Shown here in pieces: positions 1 through 34,531 of a stretch of 34,531 bases of DNA. The notes under the pieces are model-generated. The model did no database searches. It was given only the letters and a program-made list of their open reading frames with translations, and was not told the origin of the DNA. Within the stretch, counting starts at the first letter, position 1; each line of letters begins with the position of its first letter. This stretch comes from a virus. Both the position numbers and the translations under genes were made by a program. The stretch lies in IMG/VR virus record IMGVR_UViG_3300027932_000003, positions 1 to 34,531 of that record; one strand, given 5' to 3'.

Positions 1-50
1 TGTAGTTTTTTTCATTTTCTGCGAAAATTTCACAACTAATGCAAAAAATT

Positions 51-410
51 GAAAATTCCAATTTCTTTCGTTTTTTTCGTTTTTTTCGCAAATTTCCCAA
101 CTTTCGCAATAAATTGGAAATTCCAATTAATTCTACACCTCCAAATAATAATTGGAGCGGTGCAAAAAATTCAAACTTCCAAAATTCCAATTAATCTGTC
201 ATTTTGCGTAAATTGTGCAAAAAATGAGAAAAATTGTAAATTCCTAATTTCCTAAATTTGAAATAATCTATCATTTTCTGCAAAAAAGTTAAAAAATTGG
301 AAATTCCTAAATTCCAAATAATTCTACATTTCCAAATAATTTTTCAACTATGATAAAAAATACTAATTTTCTAAATTCCTAAATTACAATTAATCTGTCA
401 TTTAGTGAAA
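51..410. repeat. Imperfect short tandem direct repeats inside the ITR (unit approx aaattcc(a/t)aatt, plus recurring aattaatctgtcatt)
   Basis: At least 8 copies of the aaattcc-aatt motif seen by eye between about 51 and 395; aattaatctgtcattt occurs at about 190 and 388; mirrored in the right ITR. Confidence 0.5.
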
Positions 411-1289
411 TTTGTAATATAAAATTTGCAAATTCAAACTTTGGAAATTTGTAATAAATGTTAATTTGTGGATATTAATAACTACTAACTATAATATTAT
501 AATTTATAATTTGGAGGGAACCAAACCCACAATTTAAAGTTTTTAGTTACTAAACATATTCATAATTTATTTAATTTCTTAATTCTAGCAAACCAAAACC
601 TCAATTTAAAGTTAGAAAGATACTAAACATATTGTTAATTTGTTATATTTATTCAAATCGTTATGTGTTGTTAGTTTTTTGCGTTTAGTGTTGGAGAAAT
701 TGGAAGTTTAGAAAGAAAAGTTTATATACCAGAAGAAAGCATTTAGTATTGTTAGTGGGCATTATCTTTCTTCTTATTATTATTTTTTTATATATATTAT
801 TATTAACATTTAAATTAGATAATTATATAATTATGAAGTTATATAATTATATAATTAGCTAACTACTAATTAGTAGTTTATAATATAATAATTATAGTTT
901 TGTAGTTCAAGTGTAAAATATAGTTTCTTTTTTTCTTTCAATTCAATAGAAGATTCTGTATACAGTTTGGATTTATATCAGTATTTTATGGTAAAAATTG
1001 TAAGGAGATTTAATAATTTAGAGAATATGGAAACTATCTAGTTATTCAATATAATAATTATATAGTTATGTAGTTAGTAGTTTATAATTAATAAATTATA
1101 GTCAAACCTAAAATAGGTTTTTTTAGGATTTTTCACCGTTAGGAAACAATTTATGTTTGGTGTTATGAGAGAAATTGGAGAGACAGAATTTACACGTTCT
1201 CTATAGAGAGAGGTGGCGATAAGAGTTAAGGAGATAGAGAATGTTTTATATTCGTCATATAATATATGATGATTTGTAGATGATAAAAA

Positions 1290-1478
1290 ATGACAAGAGT
1301 ACATAAATTAACTGCTGAGCAGAAAAAAATTTTAGAAAGAATGCATAATAGAATAGATTATATTATCAAAGCTTACAAGGAGTATTTGAATGCGTTAGCT
1401 GAATTTGATAGAACTGGTGTATTAAAAATTCATGGGAAAGTCATTTATGAAAGAAAATATAATGATCATCAAAAATAA
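1290..1478 (+). CDS. ITR-encoded hypothetical protein (62 aa), left copy
   Basis: ATG-initiated ORF with balanced helical-looking composition; upstream ttttatattcGTCATAt (1241..1260) about 40 nt before the ATG matches the genome-wide promoter pattern; identical copy in right ITR. Confidence 0.5.
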   Translation: MTRVHKLTAEQKKILERMHNRIDYIIKAYKEYLNALAEFDRTGVLKIHGKVIYERKYNDHQK

Positions 1479-1516
1479 CATAATTATAAGTCGAAAAATG
1501 AAGACATGAAAAGGTA

Positions 1517-1536
1517 GAGAAAGATTTAAATATGAG
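1517..1536 (+). promoter_or_regulatory. BRE/TATA promoter (gagaaagaTTTAAATAtgag) inside the ITR, driving 1567..1764
   Basis: Purine-rich stretch plus TTTAAATA box about 40 nt upstream of ATG 1567; same module recurs at about 1937..1954, 3241..3260 and 3968..3986. The mirrored copy (32996..33015) sits about 39 nt upstream of ATG 32966 on the minus strand. Confidence 0.5.
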
Positions 1537-1566
1537 TTTTTACATATATGATATTGTGAATAAAAG

Positions 1567-4798: not shown

Positions 4799-5416
4799 TC
4801 AGAATAAAGAGCCAAAACATTTCGCTTTAAACTCACAGGCTTTACATAGATAATTATTCGCGCCAGGTATAGTTTTATAATCTTGTAATTTCATAAATTC
4901 TTTAAATTTCTTAATCCAGTCAATTGCTTTTTGCAGATATGTTCCAATTATAGTTTTATTTATTTGGAATTGTTTAACTTCTTTATTTATTCTATTTAAA
5001 TATATGATATAGACATTATCAATTTTATAGTTTTGTTGTTGTAATAAGTAATAGTAAATTGAGACTTGGTAAAGATGATATTCTTTGATATTAAAGTAAT
5101 TACTTGTGATAGTTTTTAGTTCTATAAGATCATTATTGCAAATTAAGTCAATTCTGCCTGATATTTTTAATCCTTCAATTTCGCCTTTTACTTCAACTTC
5201 AGATTTACAGCCTAGTTTTTCGACAAAATAATTTTCTATTCTCTCGTGATGTTGTTCTCCTAGGTCAAGGCTAATTTCATTTACTGCTTTCTCAAACTCA
5301 AATTTTCTACTAAAATAGCTTTTTCTAAAGCAAATTCCAATTTCGCTAGGAAATATTGTATTCTCTGGATATTTCATTTTGAAGCTTTGTTTTACAAATT
5401 CTTCATAATTTGTCAT
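4799..5416 (-). CDS. Cas4-like / RecB-family nuclease (205 aa)
   Basis: GRIDLI (motif II), IELK (motif III), [11 protein letters not shown] (QxxxY) and C-terminal C-x2-C-x5-C ([10 protein letters not shown]) plus an N-terminal Cys; aggtgg upstream of the ATG; follows the ATPase gene, as in the conserved rudivirus SSB-helicase-nuclease operon. Confidence 0.7.
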
Positions 5417-5418
5417 TT

Positions 5419-6726
5419 TTAACCACCTAAATTACTAAATCTCATTAAGTTTATTATTCTATTACAAATTTCTTCATTTTGTACTTTTCCAATTTGTAAA
5501 TCTATGTCTAATGCCTGTAATAGAATTTGAATATCGATACTTTGCTCTTGTCTTCTGGATTCTAAATTTTCGCAATTTACATAGTTATGAATACTATTTA
5601 TCTTCTGTTGAATTAATTCAATTAATGCTTTTAAAATTGAAGGATAAAGAACTCTTGCATTTATAATTTTATCGTAAGTTTTCTTAATTGCTAATTGAAT
5701 AATATGAATTCTATCTAATATTGCAGAAGTGAAAATTTCATAATTTTGTAGATAGTCTTCTAAATCTGGAGTTACTAATTTATTAATTGTATATGCATAT
5801 GGATTTCCAGCGTAAATAATTGGAATACATTTTTGTATAGTTGCTGATTTTGATTCTGTTCCAGCTCCTCTTGTCCAAATACAATTTTCAATTCCAGTTG
5901 ATAGAGTTGAATTTATAGTATTTAGTTCTTTTGTTGAAAAACCATCTTTCCAATTTTGAATTTCATCAAATATCAAACCGTTTGATAGAAATACAGCTCC
6001 ATACATATTGTTTCGAGCATCATATACCAAATTGGCATAAGTTGGAGCTTCCGTGTAATATCTAAAATTGAAAACTTCTTGTAAAATCATGAAAGTTGTA
6101 GTTTTTCCAGTTCCTCTATTAGAAATTTCAATATAATTTATTTGTCTTTTGGTAATTGGAGATTTGAAAAGTGGGAATAGTCTTGGAAGAAAGAGAAATA
6201 TATCATTTATTTCCATTTTAGTCGGGTCATATCCAAAACTTTGCAATAAAAGTGCATAAGTTGAATATTCTGAATTTGCTAATTCAAATAATTCTTTTGC
6301 AATTTCATAATTGTTGGGTGGCTCAATTGAATAAATATCATAAATACGCCAACCTTCTATACCTTTTCTAATTTTGACAAACATGTAACTTGTAATTAAA
6401 TTATAGAAATTTTCAGGATTATCAGCTATAAAATGTGGATCGAAATTTGCAGTAAAACCATTTTGAAATTTTGCTATAACTTCATCATCTTTTACTTTAA
6501 ACTGTATAATTTTAGAGATAAATTTCACTTCATCATTAAAAAGCAAATAAGATTGAAAATATTGTTGATCAATTCCGCGTTTGTAAGCTTTTAAAATTTC
6601 AATTTTCTTCCTTTCTTCAATTTGTTTTCCAGAGAGAATTATATTTAAAACTCTTTCTGTATCTCTTGGATTATAAAAAAAAGAATGAGATTTTATTTTT
6701 TCAAGAAGTTGATTTGAACTACTCAT
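5419..6726 (-). CDS. P-loop ATPase, putative helicase (435 aa)
   Basis: Walker A NRGTGKTT; size and position between the SSB-like and nuclease genes. Confidence 0.7.
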
Positions 6727-7265: not shown

Positions 7266-7538
7266 TTAAATTAACTTAAAGAATATAGATCTTATTAATT
7301 TAGATACTTTCATATTATATTTATTTGCTAATTCTTCAAGTTTTTGATAATATAATTCATCAATTGTGAAAAAAACACGCTCATCATAAATTTCACTGAT
7401 TTCAATTTCTTTAAATTCTTTTTGAGAATTTAGAATTTTATCTATTTCTTGTTTTATTGTCTCTCTTTTCTCATAAAAAAGATTTTTATACTTTGATGGT
7501 ATACGTAATTCGATATACTTATTTCTTTGCTTTTTCAT
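7266..7538 (-). CDS. hypothetical protein, possible ribbon-helix-helix fold (90 aa)
   Basis: C-terminal half RVFFTIDELYYQKLEELANKYNMKVSKLIRSIF fits a strand-helix-turn-helix (RHH) pattern; divergent from Rep across a shared 70-bp promoter region. Confidence 0.4.
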   Translation of the reverse strand: MKKQRNKYIELRIPSKYKNLFYEKRETIKQEIDKILNSQKEFKEIEISEIYDERVFFTIDELYYQKLEELANKYNMKVSKLIRSIFFKLI

Positions 7539-7609: not shown

Positions 7610-7954
7610 GTGAACGGTAAAAAAGTTTTTAGCTATCATTTTCTTTATGTTTACACGTATTTTATTACTATTGCTACAAATTATCACTATAATGATACGA
7701 CAAAAATCTATAAAAAATTCAGACAATATATTTATAATCATGATAAAAATTCTCATATTTTTTCAGTAAAAGAATATACAACAAGATTACATGGTCTACA
7801 TTATCATGTTTTAGTTTTCACGAATAAAAGGCTTGACTATTCCAGAGTTCATAAGCAAATGCCAAAACATTCAGATATAAATATTCAATTAGTTCCAAAA
7901 ACAAAAAATGATATAAAAAAAGTTTTAACTTATATGTTAAAAAATCAAAAATAA
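7610..7954 (+). CDS. HUH-superfamily rolling-circle replication initiator Rep (114 aa)
   Basis: LHGLHYHVLVF (HUH motif: H-hydrophobic-H followed by hydrophobics) and VLTYMLK (YxxK, Tyr at residue 108 by my count). The frame has no ATG before residue 84, so the start is GTG at 7610, right at the expected leaderless position. Confidence 0.75.
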   Translation: MNGKKVFSYHFLYVYTYFITIATNYHYNDTTKIYKKFRQYIYNHDKNSHIFSVKEYTTRLHGLHYHVLVFTNKRLDYSRVHKQMPKHSDINIQLVPKTKNDIKKVLTYMLKNQK

Positions 7955-7955
7955 A

Positions 7956-8243
7956 TTACTTAGATTGAGGTTGTTGATTTTGTTCAGCTTTTTTCTGTGC
8001 TAATGCATTTACATCTCTTAATGTATCCATATTCAAGAGTGAATTAATTCCAAGGGTTGTAGTATCTTTAATTGATTCAACTGCTGAAATTGTAGATTTT
8101 GTCATCTGATCTACTGCAATTTGGAATGATTGATTTGCTTGCTTTTGATTGTAGAGATATACTACTTCTCCAACAACATAGCTAGCTATTAGAACTCCCA
8201 TCAGTACTAAAAATCCTTCTAAAGCTGTTTGGCTTAGTGTCAT
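7956..8243 (-). CDS. small membrane protein, N-terminal TM helix plus helical domain (95 aa); PVAP-like candidate
   Basis: One hydrophobic segment (ALEGFLVLMGVLIASYVVGEVVYLY) followed by about 65 polar, helix-prone residues; architecture resembles the roughly 98-aa rudivirus pyramid egress protein. Assignment is tentative. Confidence 0.5.
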   Translation of the reverse strand: MTLSQTALEGFLVLMGVLIASYVVGEVVYLYNQKQANQSFQIAVDQMTKSTISAVESIKDTTTLGINSLLNMDTLRDVNALAQKKAEQNQQPQSK

Positions 8244-8341
8244 TTCAATTTTATTATATGCAAATTACTTAGTAATAAAGTTTATGCAAAAAATCGAAAT
8301 ATATAAATATGTCATAATGTATGTTTATAAAATGAGGAAAA

Positions 8342-8503
8342 ATGATGGAGAAAGTTAAAAAGGAAAGAACAGTTTTCGGTATAAATATAGATAAAGAATT
8401 AAAAAGAAAATTAAAAGTATATTGTGCAAATAATAATATCACGCTAACAGAAGCAATTGAAGAAGCTTTAGAAGAATATTTACAGAAAAGGGGAACTAAA
8501 TGA
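8342..8503 (+). CDS. ribbon-helix-helix (CopG/Arc-like) DNA-binding protein (53 aa)
   Basis: Hand-translated: [53 protein letters not shown]; promoter atataaataTGTCATAat at 8301..8318; missed by the ORF track. Confidence 0.55.
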
Positions 8504-8646
8504 GAGTAATAACGTTTAAAGTTGAAGAAGATCTTTTGCAAAAACTTGATAAATATGCTATGAATCACAAGCTAAACAGATCTGAAGTAATTAGGCAAGC
8601 ATTAATGGAATTCTTGAGACCAAATACTACAACATATGATAGTTAA
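8500..8646 (+). CDS. ribbon-helix-helix DNA-binding protein (48 aa)
   Basis: Hand-translated: [48 protein letters not shown]; textbook RHH pattern; ATG overlaps the stop of the upstream RHH gene (ATGA). Confidence 0.55.
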
Positions 8647-8701
8647 AAATAAATTAATATATCTTTTTTTATTTTTCATTTTTTTACAAATATATTTCTA
8701 G

Positions 8702-8956: not shown

Positions 8957-9232
8957 TCATTTTTCGTTTTCTGACAAATTTATTTCTTGTTTTCTCTCTC
9001 TTTTTAATCTTTCAATTTCTAGTTCAAGTTTATTAATTCTTGTATCTAAATCATCTATCAAATCTATTATCCAAGTAAAAATTATTGCCAACAAAATTGA
9101 TACAATTGCGGAATATAAAACTATATTTTGTAGATTTTTAGATAAAATTCCTTCAGAAAATATTAAAAGTATATTAAGTATTACAATTGAAAGCATTATA
9201 GAAATATATAACCTAAAAGCTAATTTGCCCAT
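8957..9232 (-). CDS. two-TM membrane protein with C-terminal coiled-coil tail (91 aa), paralog B
   Basis: Same architecture, ending KLELEIERLKRERK; own promoter tatatatttGTCAGataacg on the minus strand. Confidence 0.5.
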   Translation of the reverse strand: MGKLAFRLYISIMLSIVILNILLIFSEGILSKNLQNIVLYSAIVSILLAIIFTWIIDLIDDLDTRINKLELEIERLKRERKQEINLSENEK

Positions 9233-9287
9233 ACTTTGTCATTCTTATTTTTCGTTATCTGACAAATATATAAGTTTCTATTTCAAA

Positions 9288-9434
9288 TTATTTGGAAGAT
9301 TTTTGATTAAGCTCATAATAAGCCTCAATTAACATTTTTCTAAATTCTTCTAAATCTTCTTTACTTTCAATTATCAAAAATTTTTCTCCATCTTTTTCTT
9401 CAATTCTCATATATGAATATTTGTTATTAGACAT
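9288..9434 (-). CDS. small hypothetical protein (48 aa)
   Basis: Hand-translated: MSNNKYSYMRIEEKDGEKFLIIESKEDLEEFRKMLIEAYYELNQKSSK; 32 nt downstream of gene 9467..9766 on the same strand; no separate promoter seen. Confidence 0.25.
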   Translation of the reverse strand: MSNNKYSYMRIEEKDGEKFLIIESKEDLEEFRKMLIEAYYELNQKSSK

Positions 9435-16680: not shown

Positions 16681-17064
16681 ATGAATTTTAGACAATCTGG
16701 AAAATATTATGAATATAAGACACTTAATTATCTTGAAAAACATGGCTATAAAGCTATAAGAATTCCAGTTTCTGGAACTGGAAAACAGCCAATTCCAGAT
16801 ATTATAGCAATTAAGGATAATACAATTTTTCCAATTGAAGTTAAATCAACTTCACAAAATTATGTTGTAATTGATAATTTTCAAATTGATAAATTGTTTA
16901 AGTTCTGTGAGATATTCAATTTTTGTAATTGTAAACCGTTAATACTAGTTCATTATAAAAAATATAAAAATGTCATAATATATAATTTGAGTCAAGATGT
17001 CAGAACAAAAGAAAAAATCAAATTTGCCTTCAGAGCTAACAGCAAAACTGTATTTAGCACTTGA
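16681..17064 (+). CDS. Holliday junction resolvase, Hjc-type (127 aa)
   Basis: ORF track start 16678 is TTG; ATG at 16681. RIPVSGTGKQPIPDIIAIKDNTIFPIEVKS shows the SG ... PD-IIA ... EVK nuclease core of archaeal Hjc; promoter atatatatGTCATAattt. Confidence 0.75.
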   Translation: MNFRQSGKYYEYKTLNYLEKHGYKAIRIPVSGTGKQPIPDIIAIKDNTIFPIEVKSTSQNYVVIDNFQIDKLFKFCEIFNFCNCKPLILVHYKKYKNVIIYNLSQDVRTKEKIKFAFRANSKTVFST

Positions 17065-17237: not shown

Positions 17238-17620
17238 ACATTTGGGTTATATCTTTTTATCTAAAATTTTTTTCTTTATAAATCTCGTTACGCTCTTTCT
17301 TTGCGTAAAATTACGTTAAGAAAAATAAAAATATCGAGAGATAAGAGTTTAAAAAGATTTCTTGTAAATTTACGACTTTAGTTTATATACTCATCATTAC
17401 AATTTGTTACGCAGTAAGCGAAATAAAAGATCATTAGATGAATTGAAAGTACGTGTTTGATTTCAAATTTCAATTTTTCATATCATAAAAAAATCGAAAA
17501 ATAAAAAAGTTTTTACTTCTTCAGTTGAAAACTTCAAAAAAAGGAAGAAGATTTTGACATAAAACAATTTTTACTTTTACAACAACATTTATAATTTTAT
17601 AATATATACATGATAATAAT

Positions 17621-20600
17621 ATGAGTTTCTTATTAAATCTTGGTGACCTAGGTACATTTTTTTCAGATGAGCTAACAGCATTAGAAAATTTTGCAAATTT
17701 CTTAAGCTCTGATTTTATAAACTTTTTTAGTGCAGTAGTTAATGATATTGAAAATGTTGTAAGTTTCATAGGTCAGGCAATTAGTGATATTCCAACTTTT
17801 ATGCAAAAAATTGCTAACAATTTCTTGACGATTTTGCAAAATTTTGTACAAACTGCAATTCCAGTAGTAAGTGGATTTTTAACATTTCTTGAACAACAAA
17901 TTATAAATGTATTTCAAGATTTATCTTCTTTAGCTTCTACATTTATAAACGATGCATATTCATTTTTACAGGGTGTTGTAAATGCATTTGCAAATTTAAT
18001 AAGTACAATAGTTCAAGATTTCTTAAATAATTTTGGTCAAAATATGAAACATATTAGTTCTGCAATTTCTCAACTTACTCAATTTTTAACTCCATTTATT
18101 GCACCAATTACAATTGGTAAATTTTTGCCAGCAATAATAGATAAATTAGCTGAAATTTTGCCAGAAGTTGAAATAGATTTAGCACCTGTTGGTCTAGGCG
18201 GAAAAATTCCAATTAACTTTGGAGAAATTGTAAAAGCGTTTGCTGAAACTGCGGTAGACTTTTTTGATGAAGTTAGACAAGAAATACAAACTACGCTTAA
18301 GGAGTTTATAAAAGAGCCATTTATTTCAGATTTTAAAATTACTGCTAGAGAAATATTTAATGAAATTGGACTTGGAGATTTGCCATTTGCAGATCCTCCA
18401 TTTAGATTAATTGCAAATTGGGTCGGAGCAAGATCATTTTCCGAAATAAAAGACCATCTCAGGGAAACAATTTTATTGACCGGTTTTCCAGCATGGTTTA
18501 CTGATGCTTATCTAGAATCTCCTGCAGATGATTATATACCTAAAAATCCATTATTTAGACCAGTAAATATAAGAGATGTAATTTTAGCGTCTCAATACGG
18601 TTTTCTGAATTTTGATGCAGTTTCGCAATATGCAGAAAATAATTTAATAACTCCAAAAACTGCAAAATTAATGTATCAAAATGAGACTGCTAGACTTTTG
18701 CAAAGAGCAGTTGAGGAAGGCATTCGTCAATTTATAGTCACCCCAGAAAAAGCTTATCAAGAAATAATACAAAATGTCAATTTAGCAGGCAAAGACTTAT
18801 ATTTAAAAGTTTTTACTTTAGAGTATAATTATTCAGTTCAAAGAATTGTCAGACAATTTTTAAGATCACTTTTGTCGAGAGCTTTAACGAATTTTGGAAG
18901 ACCTTACATTGATCTAAAATTCCTAGAATCAACAGTTCAAAAATTATTTAAAGAATTAAATTATCCTGAAGAAGTTCAAAATGTTTTTAACGTTATGATT
19001 GAACAATCTCAAATTGTGTATACTAATCAATTACTTTTAACACAATTAGAACAAATTACCAGATTAGGAATATTTGATGAGAAAAAGATAAAAGCGGATT
19101 TAAAAGCTAATAACTTTAATGAACAAATAGCACTAACAATTTTGAATTATGAACTTCAATATGTACAATTACAACATATTCTAAAAGAGTTTCAGTTCAA
19201 ACTACAAAATTACATTATTAGTTCAAAAGATGCAGAAAAAGAGTTAAAACATCTAGGTTTTGATTCTTCTATAATCTCTGAGATAATTTTTGAATATCAA
19301 ACAGCTCCATTAACAAAATATCAAATTAGTCAAATTGAAAATTTAGCAAAGAAAGGATATTTATCAGTTGATGAAATTAAAAAACAATTAAATTCTCTTA
19401 AAGTAATTAAAGAATTTGAAGACATATTTATCAATTACACAAATCAAGAAATTCAAATATCATCAATTTTGAGTATTGCAAAAGAACAATTGAGAAACTT
19501 CTTGATAGATTTGAAAACTGTAGAAAATGAATTAAAAGCGTTAAAAATTAATGATTATTTAATAAACGAGGTAATTCAAGAAGAATACAATATAAATATT
19601 GCTAAATTACAATTATCATATATAGAAACTTTAGCTAAGAATTTATACTATGATCAAGCTCAATTAGCTGGAGAATTATCTAAAATTTTGAAAGATAAAA
19701 CTGCAATAGATCTTTATACTCAAAAATTCTATTATGAATATGTATTTCCAAAAATAGTTAACTATTACGTAAGTTTAGCAAGACATGGAATAATTGGAAA
19801 TATTAAAAATTTACCAAAAGAAATTGTAGATTATGAAATTAATCCAGAAATCCAAATTTTTCAACTTACAACAGAATTAGAATATATAAAGTCTTTATTA
19901 AAAGATTTACAAATAACTCCAACAAATGCTGAAAATGAGTTAATAAAATTAGGAATGCAAAAAGATATAGCTAATTTGTTTGTACAAACTTATGTACCAA
20001 CATTTTATAGTTTACATACTATAATTGGAAATGTTGTGCAAGGTCAACTTTACAAAGTAGGAAAAATTCCAATTAATTTAGGAAATGCAGAACAACAATT
20101 AAGACAATTAGGAATTCCAGATAATCAAATTAAAGTTTTATTAAACCAATATGCCTCTTCATTTGGCTTAGAAATTTGGAGGAAATTCTTACCTTCACTT
20201 TCTCAAATTGAAACTGCAATAAAATATAACTTTCCAATTAGTCAATTAGTTGAATATTCATTTATACCTTCTGAATTTCTAAATCTTTACACTAATTTAT
20301 ATCAATATGAGCTAATTGGACAATATGTACAATCTCTAAAGACAGAATATGTAGAATTATTAGTTTATGGAGTTCAAAATATACAATTAGAAAGTTTATT
20401 AAAACAATACGGAATAAATGAAACATTATTAGGAGTTTTCAAATTATCAGCTCAAATTAGAAAAATATTAACGGCTTACCAAGAGCTTTACATCACCCCA
20501 TCTAAAGCACTCACAATTAGCGAATATATTAGTAATCCTAATCAATTATTACAAAAAGTATTTAGTGAATTTCAAGTTCCTAGTGATTTACAAAATACTT

Positions 20601-20797
20601 ATCTCGAGTATGCAAGAAATAGGAGATTAAGGACTTACGTAAACGACATAATTTCAACAATCAATTTACTATTTGAAAAGCAGAAAATTGATTTAAATAC
20701 CGCACAATCATATTTGCAACAATTAAAACAATATGGTTTAACTAATGAAGAAATACAATTAATATTGTTAAACTGGCAATTGAGATCTAACTACTAA
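17621..20797 (+). CDS. large virion-associated structural protein, predominantly helical (1058 aa)
   Basis: Single uninterrupted ATG ORF of 3.2 kb; size matches the roughly 1070-aa rudivirus minor structural / terminal fibre protein (from memory). Confidence 0.75.
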   Translation: MSFLLNLGDLGTFFSDELTALENFANFLSSDFINFFSAVVNDIENVVSFIGQAISDIPTFMQKIANNFLTILQNFVQTAIPVVSGFLTFLEQQIINVFQDLSSLASTFINDAYSFLQGVVNAFANLISTIVQDFLNNFGQNMKHISSAISQLTQFLTPFIAPITIGKFLPAIIDKLAEILPEVEIDLAPVGLGGKIPINFGEIVKAFAETAVDFFDEVRQEIQTTLKEFIKEPFISDFKITAREIFNEIGLGDLPFADPPFRLIANWVGARSFSEIKDHLRETILLTGFPAWFTDAYLESPADDYIPKNPLFRPVNIRDVILASQYGFLNFDAVSQYAENNLITPKTAKLMYQNETARLLQRAVEEGIRQFIVTPEKAYQEIIQNVNLAGKDLYLKVFTLEYNYSVQRIVRQFLRSLLSRALTNFGRPYIDLKFLESTVQKLFKELNYPEEVQNVFNVMIEQSQIVYTNQLLLTQLEQITRLGIFDEKKIKADLKANNFNEQIALTILNYELQYVQLQHILKEFQFKLQNYIISSKDAEKELKHLGFDSSIISEIIFEYQTAPLTKYQISQIENLAKKGYLSVDEIKKQLNSLKVIKEFEDIFINYTNQEIQISSILSIAKEQLRNFLIDLKTVENELKALKINDYLINEVIQEEYNINIAKLQLSYIETLAKNLYYDQAQLAGELSKILKDKTAIDLYTQKFYYEYVFPKIVNYYVSLARHGIIGNIKNLPKEIVDYEINPEIQIFQLTTELEYIKSLLKDLQITPTNAENELIKLGMQKDIANLFVQTYVPTFYSLHTIIGNVVQGQLYKVGKIPINLGNAEQQLRQLGIPDNQIKVLLNQYASSFGLEIWRKFLPSLSQIETAIKYNFPISQLVEYSFIPSEFLNLYTNLYQYELIGQYVQSLKTEYVELLVYGVQNIQLESLLKQYGINETLLGVFKLSAQIRKILTAYQELYITPSKALTISEYISNPNQLLQKVFSEFQVPSDLQNTYLEYARNRRLRTYVNDIISTINLLFEKQKIDLNTAQSYLQQLKQYGLTNEEIQLILLNWQLRSNY

Positions 20798-29035: not shown

Positions 29036-29934
29036 AATTGATTTTTGGATTAAGTTCAACATTATCATATATTTTAAAAACAAATTTTCCAATTTTAGTT
29101 AATCAACTAAGATTTAAAAGAAAAACATGGAAAAATGAAACATGGATTGATAGTGGCGGATATCAAATTATAATGCATAATCTAAAAATTTCTGTAAATG
29201 ATGTCTTGCAAAAGTATAAAAGTGTTAATGCTTACGCATTTTTTTCGCTTGATATTCCTAGCGTTTTTTCGCCAATTGATAAACGAAACTTTGAATATTT
29301 CGAATATCTATATACGAAAATTGAGTATATAGAAAAGATTATACCAGTTTTACATATTTATTCACTTCAAGATATAGATGAAGCAATTGATTTTTATAAA
29401 CAATACAGTTATTATTTTGCAATTGGTGGTATAATGACTTCTAGCAAAATGAAAGTTTTACAATATACATTTCCATGGGTTTATTATATAAAAAGAAAAG
29501 TTCCATATCTCCATATTTTAGGCATGTCATCTCCATATTTTTTACAAATTTTTAATAATATGCAAAGCATGGATACCGCAATTTGTTCAACAATTTCAAC
29601 ATTTAAAGAAATAATTTGGTTTGATAGTTCTAGGAGATATGTTGGAAATATGAAAACAAAAAGGGAAAGATATAAAATTACAAAAGAAGAAAAAGAACAA
29701 TTATTTGAATTTTTAGACAAACATAACTTTCAATTTAACTATGATTTAAGTAATAGAAATATTCTAGAACTTATAAATGCATATATGTTATTATATAATA
29801 ATTGGAAAATTAAGAATAAATATACAGAATATGCAGAAAAACTTAGAAAAATGGGACTAGATAGTTTGACAAGTGAGTTAATTAGAAATTATAAAATTGC
29901 AAATGAAATATTAAAACAGAAAAGAGAAAAATAG
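29032..29934 (+). CDS. hypothetical protein (300 aa)
   Basis: ATG ORF translationally coupled to the membrane protein gene. Confidence 0.55.
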   Translation: MKLIFGLSSTLSYILKTNFPILVNQLRFKRKTWKNETWIDSGGYQIIMHNLKISVNDVLQKYKSVNAYAFFSLDIPSVFSPIDKRNFEYFEYLYTKIEYIEKIIPVLHIYSLQDIDEAIDFYKQYSYYFAIGGIMTSSKMKVLQYTFPWVYYIKRKVPYLHILGMSSPYFLQIFNNMQSMDTAICSTISTFKEIIWFDSSRRYVGNMKTKRERYKITKEEKEQLFEFLDKHNFQFNYDLSNRNILELINAYMLLYNNWKIKNKYTEYAEKLRKMGLDSLTSELIRNYKIANEILKQKREK

Positions 29935-32966: not shown

Positions 32967-32992
32967 CTTTTTCACCATTATCTATTATCTCT

Positions 32993-34531
32993 AAACTCAT
33001 ATTTAAATCTTTCTCTACCTTTTCATGTCTTCATTTTTCGACTTATAATTATGTTATTTTTGATGATCATTATATTTTCTTTCATAAATGACTTTCCCAT
33101 GAATTTTTAATACACCAGTTCTATCAAATTCAGCTAACGCATTCAAATACTCCTTGTAAGCTTTGATAATATAATCTATTCTATTATGCATTCTTTCTAA
33201 AATTTTTTTCTGCTCAGCAGTTAATTTATGTACTCTTGTCATTTTTTATCATCTACAAATCATCATATATTATATGACGAATATAAAACATTCTCTATCT
33301 CCTTAACTCTTATCGCCACCTCTCTCTATAGAGAACGTGTAAATTCTGTCTCTCCAATTTCTCTCATAACACCAAACATAAATTGTTTCCTAACGGTGAA
33401 AAATCCTAAAAAAACCTATTTTAGGTTTGACTATAATTTATTAATTATAAACTACTAACTACATAACTATATAATTATTATATTGAATAACTAGATAGTT
33501 TCCATATTCTCTAAATTATTAAATCTCCTTACAATTTTTACCATAAAATACTGATATAAATCCAAACTGTATACAGAATCTTCTATTGAATTGAAAGAAA
33601 AAAAGAAACTATATTTTACACTTGAACTACAAAACTATAATTATTATATTATAAACTACTAATTAGTAGTTAGCTAATTATATAATTATATAACTTCATA
33701 ATTATATAATTATCTAATTTAAATGTTAATAATAATATATATAAAAAAATAATAATAAGAAGAAAGATAATGCCCACTAACAATACTAAATGCTTTCTTC
33801 TGGTATATAAACTTTTCTTTCTAAACTTCCAATTTCTCCAACACTAAACGCAAAAAACTAACAACACATAACGATTTGAATAAATATAACAAATTAACAA
33901 TATGTTTAGTATCTTTCTAACTTTAAATTGAGGTTTTGGTTTGCTAGAATTAAGAAATTAAATAAATTATGAATATGTTTAGTAACTAAAAACTTTAAAT
34001 TGTGGGTTTGGTTCCCTCCAAATTATAAATTATAATATTATAGTTAGTAGTTATTAATATCCACAAATTAACATTTATTACAAATTTCCAAAGTTTGAAT
34101 TTGCAAATTTTATATTACAAATTTCACTAAATGACAGATTAATTGTAATTTAGGAATTTAGAAAATTAGTATTTTTTATCATAGTTGAAAAATTATTTGG
34201 AAATGTAGAATTATTTGGAATTTAGGAATTTCCAATTTTTTAACTTTTTTGCAGAAAATGATAGATTATTTCAAATTTAGGAAATTAGGAATTTACAATT
34301 TTTCTCATTTTTTGCACAATTTACGCAAAATGACAGATTAATTGGAATTTTGGAAGTTTGAATTTTTTGCACCGCTCCAATTATTATTTGGAGGTGTAGA
34401 ATTAATTGGAATTTCCAATTTATTGCGAAAGTTGGGAAATTTGCGAAAAAAACGAAAAAAACGAAAGAAATTGGAATTTTCAATTTTTTGCATTAGTTGT
34501 GAAATTTTCGCAGAAAATGAAAAAAACTACA
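32993..34531. repeat. Right inverted terminal repeat (ITR)
   Basis: Mirror copy of 1..1539; the window ends with the reverse complement of its first bases. Confidence 0.85.
33054..33242 (-). CDS. ITR-encoded hypothetical protein (62 aa), right copy
   Basis: Identical translation to 1290..1478; mirrored promoter. Confidence 0.5.
   Translation of the reverse strand: MTRVHKLTAEQKKILERMHNRIDYIIKAYKEYLNALAEFDRTGVLKIHGKVIYERKYNDHQK

Follow-up and report, generated by a model that had tools for sequence, protein, structure and literature searches.

Overlapping genes for SvtR-like and aCcr1-family ribbon-helix-helix regulators in a Yellowstone-type Sulfolobus islandicus rod-shaped virus

The viral DNA analysed here (the window, the whole stretch of 34,531 nt at 25% GC) carries at 8342..8646 two short overlapping genes, which probably (we put the probability at roughly 0.85) constitute a two-gene operon of two different characterised ribbon-helix-helix (RHH) factors, SvtR and a viral aCcr1, in a Yellowstone-type Sulfolobus islandicus rod-shaped virus (SIRV). 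The upstream gene, ORF1, is assigned to SvtR and the downstream gene, ORF2, to the aCcr1 family of cell-cycle regulators. The features of the locus, in window positions, are as follows.

7956..8243, minus strand: gene for the pyramid-forming (virion egress) protein, divergent from ORF1 and having a 98-nt intergenic region in common with it; named from the "pyramid forming protein" at the homologous position in the SIRV4-11 RefSeq records
8269..8568, minus strand: antisense 99-aa ORF, read as a spurious shadow ORF and not a gene
8298..8317, plus strand: putative promoter core AATATATAAATATGTCATAA, with a TATA box at ~8300-8309 followed by GTC at 8311-8313, assigned from position and conservation
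8314..8334, plus strand: putative equivalent of the SvtR operator; ATAATGTATGTTTATAAAATG in the window, ATAATTCAAAATCTTAAAATG in the operator of the SIRV1 gene's own promoter
8334..8337, plus strand: GAGG Shine-Dalgarno (SD)-like motif, 4 nt before the ORF1 ATG, within the block TGAGGAAAAATG
8342..8503, plus strand: ORF1, 53 aa, assigned as SvtR ortholog (56B-like RHH transcriptional repressor)
8489..8493, plus strand: AGGGG purine-rich SD-like motif within the 3′ end of ORF1, 6 nt before the ORF2 ATG
8500..8503, plus strand: ATGA start/stop overlap (ORF2 ATG, ORF1 TGA), present in 12 of 12 isolate genomes and 3 metagenome contigs
8500..8646, plus strand: ORF2, 48 aa, assigned as viral aCcr1-family RHH cell-cycle regulator, ortholog of SIRV9 gp19
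8664..8685, plus strand: three oligo-T runs (T7, T5, T7), likely an archaeal transcription stop

Perfect (100%) inverted terminal repeats of 1,556 bp lie at both ends of the window (1-1556 and 32976-34531), which is thus a complete linear rudivirus genome. Nucleotide identity to SIRV8 and SIRV9, Yellowstone members of the genus Usarudivirus, is 89-90% (~89% for SIRV8), and by this measure the window is a Yellowstone-type SIRV (Usarudivirus). Together, the repeats and the identity to SIRV8/9 bear out the rudivirus assignment made in the preliminary description. The window genome itself is absent from the phage collection that we searched. Comparisons were made across 12 Usarudivirus genomes, comprising the window and 11 related isolates, and across 3 metagenome contigs.

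The preliminary description had proposed two ORFs of 53 and 48 aa that overlap by ATGA at 8500..8503, and both the coordinates and the lengths are exactly as it claimed. It had also described the pair as missed by the ORF track; this holds only in that both fall below the length cutoff of the track, and the pair is not an overlooked feature, because both genes are annotated in the public records of its relatives. In the RefSeq records of SIRV4-11 they appear with the identical 4-nt overlap, divergent from the gene for the pyramid-forming protein, the first under the name "Arc-like repressor" and the second as "hypothetical protein". The pairing was found in 12 of 12 isolate genomes, with identical architecture in the 3 metagenome contigs. 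Variation in both genes falls mainly on third codon positions (variable columns at positions 1/2/3: 20/16/46 for ORF1 and 18/6/28 for residues 1-40 of ORF2), and the pN/pS values are 0.20 (ORF1), 0.28 (ORF2 residues 1-40), and 0.36 (all of ORF2). These substitution patterns indicate that both plus-strand frames are under purifying selection.

Both ORF1 and ORF2 are SIRV core genes, and core genes other than the central ones are rearranged between Yellowstone and Icelandic SIRVs (Bautista et al. 2017). In SIRV1 the two homologs are unlinked, with gp08 (SvtR) at 5398-5568 on the minus strand and gp14 (the aCcr1 homolog) at 9114-9293 on the plus strand; in SIRV1 and SIRV2 alike (gp15 and gp21 in SIRV2) the genes lie 3.6 kb apart on opposite strands. 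There, SvtR comes immediately after gp09/gp16, and the aCcr1 homolog overlaps gp13/gp20 by 4 nt. An origin of the pair by tandem duplication was considered and rejected, as ORF2 shares 65% identity with cellular proteins of the aCcr1 type and BLASTP of ORF1 against ORF2 finds no similarity.

Several neighbouring genes were also noted. The gene at 7610..7954 (plus strand) encodes a 114-aa "117-like" or Rep-related protein (PF21578, 5.3e-47) and is the homolog of SIRV1 gp09. In the window it is separated from SvtR by the pyramid-protein gene on the opposite strand, while in SIRV1 gp09 immediately precedes SvtR and the pyramid-protein gene is found at 29466-29762, toward the opposite end of the genome. 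A 90-aa protein encoded at 7266..7538 (minus strand) has an RHH-like C-terminal segment, scoring 19.3 bits against RHH_3, slightly under the cutoff of 21.6, and matching ORF2 in phmmer with E 0.016; if it is counted, three RHH genes lie inside 1.4 kb. Its position makes it the ortholog of SIRV4 gp10, for which Li et al. (2023, PMC9976892) name a viral RHH cluster of its own. The gene downstream of ORF2 is convergent and resembles a small membrane or coiled-coil protein. Further on, a 48-aa ORF at 9288..9434 (minus strand) is, by position alone, the counterpart of SIRV9 gp22 and SIRV8 gp24, which are placed in arCOG07934 as AbrB-like, antitoxin-like proteins whose host homologs adjoin RelE toxins (2024, PMC11065993).

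The reading of both peptides as RHH proteins in the preliminary description agrees with the curated profile models, which found RHH similarity in each (ORF1 with PF21432 and RHH_1, ORF2 with RHH_1). ORF1 scores 52.5 bits against PF21432 56B_RHH (cutoff 27.2; E 4.6e-14) and 22.8 bits against PF01402 RHH_1 (cutoff 20.5). It also matches PDB 2KEL, the NMR structure of SIRV1 protein 56B, over 48 residues (query 4-51 against chain 8-55; E 2.6e-17), an entry with two chains of one sequence. SvtR, the product of SIRV1 gp08 (ORF56b), is the protein of PDB 2KEL and was reportedly described by Guilliere et al. (2009, J Biol Chem 284:22222). ORF1 is ~71% identical to SvtR of SIRV1/2/3 and 87% identical to the "Arc-like repressor" of SIRV8/9, and tblastn with ORF1 matches the annotated SvtR or "Arc-like repressor" genes in all SIRVs. 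Among virus records, tblastn finds SvtR in SIRVs and SIFVs only. On these profile and identity matches, we assign ORF1 as the SvtR ortholog. Its start is ambiguous, with consecutive in-frame ATG codons at 8342 and 8345; isolate V65 has the second ATG only and the Nymph Lake isolates the first only, and in RefSeq the gene spans 162 nt in SIRV4-7 and SIRV11, as against 159 nt in SIRV8/9/10. SvtR acts as a homodimeric repressor of the RHH type; it binds the promoter of its own gene, and the site bound with the highest apparent affinity lies ahead of gp30 (ORF1070), which encodes a tail-fibre protein (PMC5569661).

ORF2 belongs to a different RHH family. It scores 31.1 bits against RHH_1 (cutoff 20.5) and 75.4 bits against the NCBIfam equivalog model NF053762, "aCcr1 family cell cycle regulator" (cutoff 60; E 2.3e-21), of which ORF1 is a non-member at 23 bits. 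ORF2 shares 95.8% identity with SIRV9 gp19 (YP_009362571.1), 65% with a chromosomally encoded protein of Acidianus sp. HS-5 (58 aa), and 54% with SIRV2 gp21, and the β-strand MRVITFKV is identical in the cellular Acidianus homolog. Residues R2, K7, and R27, which are essential for DNA binding and for the cell-division phenotype of aCcr1 (Yang et al. 2023, PMC9976878), are present in ORF2 and invariant among 8 homologs. The AF2 model (pLDDT 79.7) has an extended N-terminus and two helices, as expected of an RHH monomer, and its top Foldseek matches are NikR, CopG, Arc, and SvtR (TM 0.64-0.81), with E-values of only 0.03-0.4 because ORF2 is very short. Model score and conserved residues together identify ORF2, at the level of sequence, as a viral member of the aCcr1 family.

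The distribution of ORF2 is broader than that of SvtR. With tblastn, homologs appear in 79 archaeal-virus records from rudi-, lipothrix-, turri-, bicauda-, and fuselloviruses, many of them from viruses without SvtR. This distribution agrees with the clade of SIRV2 gp21 and aCcr1 described by Li et al. (2023, PMC9976892). A word-index protein search with the 48-aa ORF2 returned 7 matches. A scan of genome contigs recovered Sulfolobales homologs as well as distant RHH-fusion proteins in Bathyarchaeia and Nitrososphaeria. The distant homologs, on MAG contigs from these two groups (L017-L032), are 39-49% identical to ORF2 over ~39 residues and conserve a 10-residue motif; in three translated loci (L017, L021, and L027), the RHH domain is fused at the N-terminus of proteins of ~306-309 aa.

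In one respect ORF2 departs from the tested proteins of the family. The expected length is ~58 aa, with a conserved tail at the C-terminus (...VEKI[KR][FL]); ORF2 stops at residue 48 without the "...ARVEKIK[FL]" ending, 10-11 residues short of the cellular and SIRV2 proteins that have been tested (58-59 aa). Total length varies with the tail among Usarudivirus-type relatives, being 48, 52, 58, 59, or 63 aa (window 8500..8646, L034-L036, P0003, and P0004), and only some of them, such as P0004 ("...VKVEKIKL"), retain the motif seen in the tails of cellular aCcr1 and of SIRV2 gp21. The missing tail does not exclude membership in the aCcr1 family, because it lies outside the 38-position model and has been reported as unstructured.

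Proteins of this family have been studied directly. SIRV9 gp19 was synthesised and overexpressed as the usarudiviral representative of the SiL_0190/aCcr1 branch, and all constructs of that branch gave a 10-fold lower transformation efficiency and retarded growth; the text contains no cell-size data specific to SIRV9 gp19 (Li et al. 2023, PMC9976892). Binding to the aCcr1 box in cdvA and other host promoters and a division block on overexpression have been shown for SIRV2 gp21, SiL_0190, aCcr1, ATV gp29, and SMV3 gp63, and aCcr1 homologs are predicted to be homodimers that act mainly on host cell-division promoters (PMC9976892, PMC9976878). SIRV2 gp21 binds the promoter ahead of gp20-gp21, while its binding to the promoter of SvtR (gp15) is non-specific only (PMC9976892).

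The layout of the locus is conserved along with the coding sequences. Across the 12 Usarudivirus genomes AATATATAAATATGTCATAA is invariant, and it is nearly identical 5′ of SvtR in SIRV1/2. The start-codon block TGAGGAAAAATG is likewise conserved, both among the Usarudivirus genomes and in SIRV1, and its GAGG is one that we take to match the Sulfolobus anti-SD sequence. A GAGG, GGGG, or GAGGAG lies 6-11 nt 5′ of the ORF2 ATG in 12 of 12 genomes; SD-like motifs are typical of internal operon genes. The coupled tandem arrangement put forward in the preliminary description is therefore confirmed as a layout, with both the ATGA overlap and the SD-like motif in all 12 genomes. Within 8342-8646 there are no T runs of 5 or more, and the first ones come after the ORF2 stop. 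A scan for bacterial-type promoters and terminators is uninformative for an archaeal virus.

Conservation does not extend to the repressor's target sequence. In SIRV1 the operator ATAATTCAAAATCTTAAAATG lies between the promoter core and the start block; at the equivalent position in the window, the flanks are conserved and the TTCAA core is replaced. TTCAA is likewise lost from the site upstream of ORF1058 (17621..20797) that is homologous to the SIRV1 gp30 site (compared positions: 8314..8334 and ~17400..17430 in the window; 5576-5596 and ~16900-16930 in SIRV1, L013). The operator pattern ATnnTTCAAnA...AAAATG was thus not found in the window at the pair's own promoter or at the large structural protein gene, a result that concerns conservation of the target sequence and has no bearing on the family membership of ORF1. 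Across the window the SvtR consensus ATnnTTCAAnAnnnnnAAAATG gave 9 matches with up to 2 mismatches against 7.3 expected, and none lay at the pair's own promoter. In its printed form this consensus fails to match SIRV1; once a 4-nt spacer is used, the fit to the SIRV1 gp08 operator is exact. For the window, autorepression and the target set are extrapolated, because the TTCAA core is absent at both sites and the consensus is unenriched. Loss of TTCAA from the operators, together with a β-strand change from AVFGIYM in SIRV1 to TVFGINI in the window, may reflect co-evolution of the repressor and its operators.

Sites for aCcr1 are not enriched either. The whole window has 5 copies of the aCcr1 box AGTATTA where 13.1 would be expected, and 15 of AGTAWTA where 25.5 would be; both counts are ~2 sd low, and the copies show no clear placement at promoters. 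We make no claim of ORF2 autoregulation, because the box is unenriched and shows no clear promoter placement. Two of the 15 AGTAWTA copies, both AGTAATA, fall at the locus, one in the divergent intergenic region (8271..8277) and one in codons 2-4 of ORF2 (8505..8511). The first coincides in part with what is likely the TATA box of the pyramid-protein gene, on the opposite strand, and no conclusion is drawn from it because it is exact in only 5 of 12 genomes.

Other readings of the locus have to be weighed against a SvtR-aCcr1 operon. That the minus-strand 99-aa ORF is the true gene and the plus-strand ORFs arose by chance could be argued from length, since no other ORF at the locus is as long in the window, SIRV8, or SIRV9. 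Its pN/pS of 0.41 is uninformative alone, since the sense frame constrains the antisense frame; the informative result is that stop codons interrupt the antisense frame in 9 of 12 related genomes, which marks 8269..8568 as a shadow ORF. This frame has no Pfam match, no annotation in any relative (SIRV4-11 records), and a low-complexity composition rich in F, I, S, and L, while the plus frames have strong family matches and variation dominated by third positions. The preliminary description had called the antisense ORF probably spurious and had set its being the real gene as the outcome that would count against the pair; the comparative data contradict that outcome, and we give it next to no credence. 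It is also unlikely, to a lesser degree, that the adjacent genes are expressed independently, with an internal ORF2 promoter in the 3′ end of ORF1 and the 4-nt overlap a product of compaction. Overlaps of 4 nt are common in such compact genomes (for example, SIRV1 gp13/gp14 and SIRV2 gp20/gp21), TATA-like strings are frequent at 25% GC, and one of them, AATATTTA, lies at 8474..8481, ~20 nt 5′ of the ORF2 ATG. However, the codons of the conserved EEYLQK stretch, which SIRV1 also has although no ORF2 follows there, dictate this internal TATA, so its conservation is uninformative on promoter function; at ~-22 from the ATG it is too close for the usual -26/-27 spacing, and a conserved SD-like motif stands ahead of ORF2.

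The tight coupling, kept without exception across the 15 Usarudivirus-type sequences compared, could alternatively provide a 1:1 supply of subunits for SvtR-aCcr1 heterodimers or mixed oligomers on DNA, with a specificity new relative to either homodimer. Both proteins have the same small dimeric fold, and phmmer finds a weak similarity between them (E ~2e-5, against 168 window ORFs). BLASTP of one against the other nevertheless gives no alignment, and ORF2 is far closer to cellular aCcr1 (65%) than to ORF1. SvtR is reported as a homodimer, the aCcr1 homologs are predicted homodimers that act alone when overexpressed, and in SIRV1/2 both function from unlinked genes. An obligate heterodimer would have its genes co-occurring and linked wherever either occurs, and this is not the pattern found: aCcr1 homologs are in 79 virus records, SvtR in SIRVs and SIFVs only. 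The preliminary suggestion of a heterodimeric regulator, or of a regulator plus partner, thus finds no support, and we regard it as very unlikely; the same low probability applies to mixed dimers or DNA co-oligomers physically linking viral late-gene control to host division shut-down. If one RHH protein neutralised a partner, the pair would be a type II toxin-antitoxin-like or anti-defence module; this would fit with the common use of RHH domains as the DNA-binding domains of antitoxins and with weak sub-threshold matches of both proteins to VapB, RelB, and MazE models. Those matches fall far short of the curated cutoffs, while ORF1 clears the cutoff of the SvtR model and ORF2 that of the aCcr1 model. 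A search for an adjacent PIN, RelE, MazF, or like partner found RHH-only proteins, neither of them with a toxin-type domain; the downstream gene is convergent, and both genes belong to the SIRV core. Since no toxin-type partner is present, a module of this kind, already held less likely in the preliminary description, has a negligible probability.

For the SvtR-aCcr1 operon, the following mechanism is proposed. A single bicistronic mRNA would most likely run from the TATA+GTC promoter at 8298..8317 to the oligo-T runs at 8664..8685, and translation of ORF2 is probably coupled to that of ORF1 through the ATGA overlap and the internal SD-like motif; here we infer co-transcription and coupling, having observed directly the genes themselves, their family membership, and the conservation of overlap and promoter core. 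By homology, ORF1 would be a homodimer that binds and represses its own promoter and further promoters of the virus, in particular the one ahead of the gene for the large minor structural protein (ORF1058). ORF2 would, again by homology, be a homodimer acting on aCcr1-box (AGTATTA-type) sites in the host promoters of cdvA, ESCRT-III-2, and others. Its action would block cell division while DNA synthesis continues, thereby favouring virus production; SIRV2 gp21 acts on host promoters to stop division (PMC9976892). Dose and timing of this host-directed regulator would follow the SvtR promoter in the Usarudivirus lineage. That promoter is autorepressed in SIRV1 (PMC5569661), and SvtR autorepression could set the dose of the host cell-cycle hijacker.

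As a discovery the pair carries little weight, because annotation of both genes already exists for close relatives and each family has been studied by experiment, with a 96%-identical ortholog of ORF2 among the proteins tested. The gain lies partly in annotation, as the name viral aCcr1 can be given to the ORF2 orthologs that RefSeq lists as "hypothetical protein" for SIRV4-11. It lies also in the placement of the Usarudivirus host cell-cycle regulator behind the SvtR promoter, as against its own promoter of the gp20-gp21 type in SIRV2, a difference suggesting that the lineages differ in the timing of cell-division arrest. This Usarudivirus-specific wiring, with aCcr1 behind the conserved SvtR promoter, is the only mildly new point, and its consequence was not found in the literature consulted.

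Several known systems offer comparisons. Type II RHH antitoxins (VapB, RelB, MazE, and CopG-like) have the same fold and small, often overlapping genes, but the window pair has no toxin partner and all its matches to them are under the family cutoffs. By description, the locus also resembles the genes gp29 and gp30 of Acidianus filamentous virus 6 (AFV6), likewise two neighbouring RHH genes of an archaeal virus, where the RHH regulator AvtR (gp29) controls the neighbouring RHH-protein gene (Peixeiro et al. 2013, via PMC5569661). As summarised in that secondary account, AvtR differs from the proteins of the window pair in having two RHH motifs per chain, and the AFV6 genes are separately promoted, neither overlapping nor coupled. 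ORF2 belongs with cellular aCcr1 (SiL_0190/SiRe_0197) and its viral homologs (SIRV2 gp21/ORF59b, SIRV9 gp19, ATV gp29, SMV3 gp63, and STIV A61), as it passes the aCcr1 equivalog model and keeps the DNA-binding residues R2, K7, and R27. ORF1 is like SIRV1 SvtR in Pfam family, length class (53 vs 56 aa), promoter core, and SD/start block, and differs from it in the β-strand described above. SIRV1 has nothing coupled downstream of SvtR, whereas in the window an aCcr1 gene follows it in a coupled arrangement; conversely, the aCcr1 homolog of SIRV1/2 is coupled to gp13/gp20, while ORF2 of the window stands behind the SvtR promoter.
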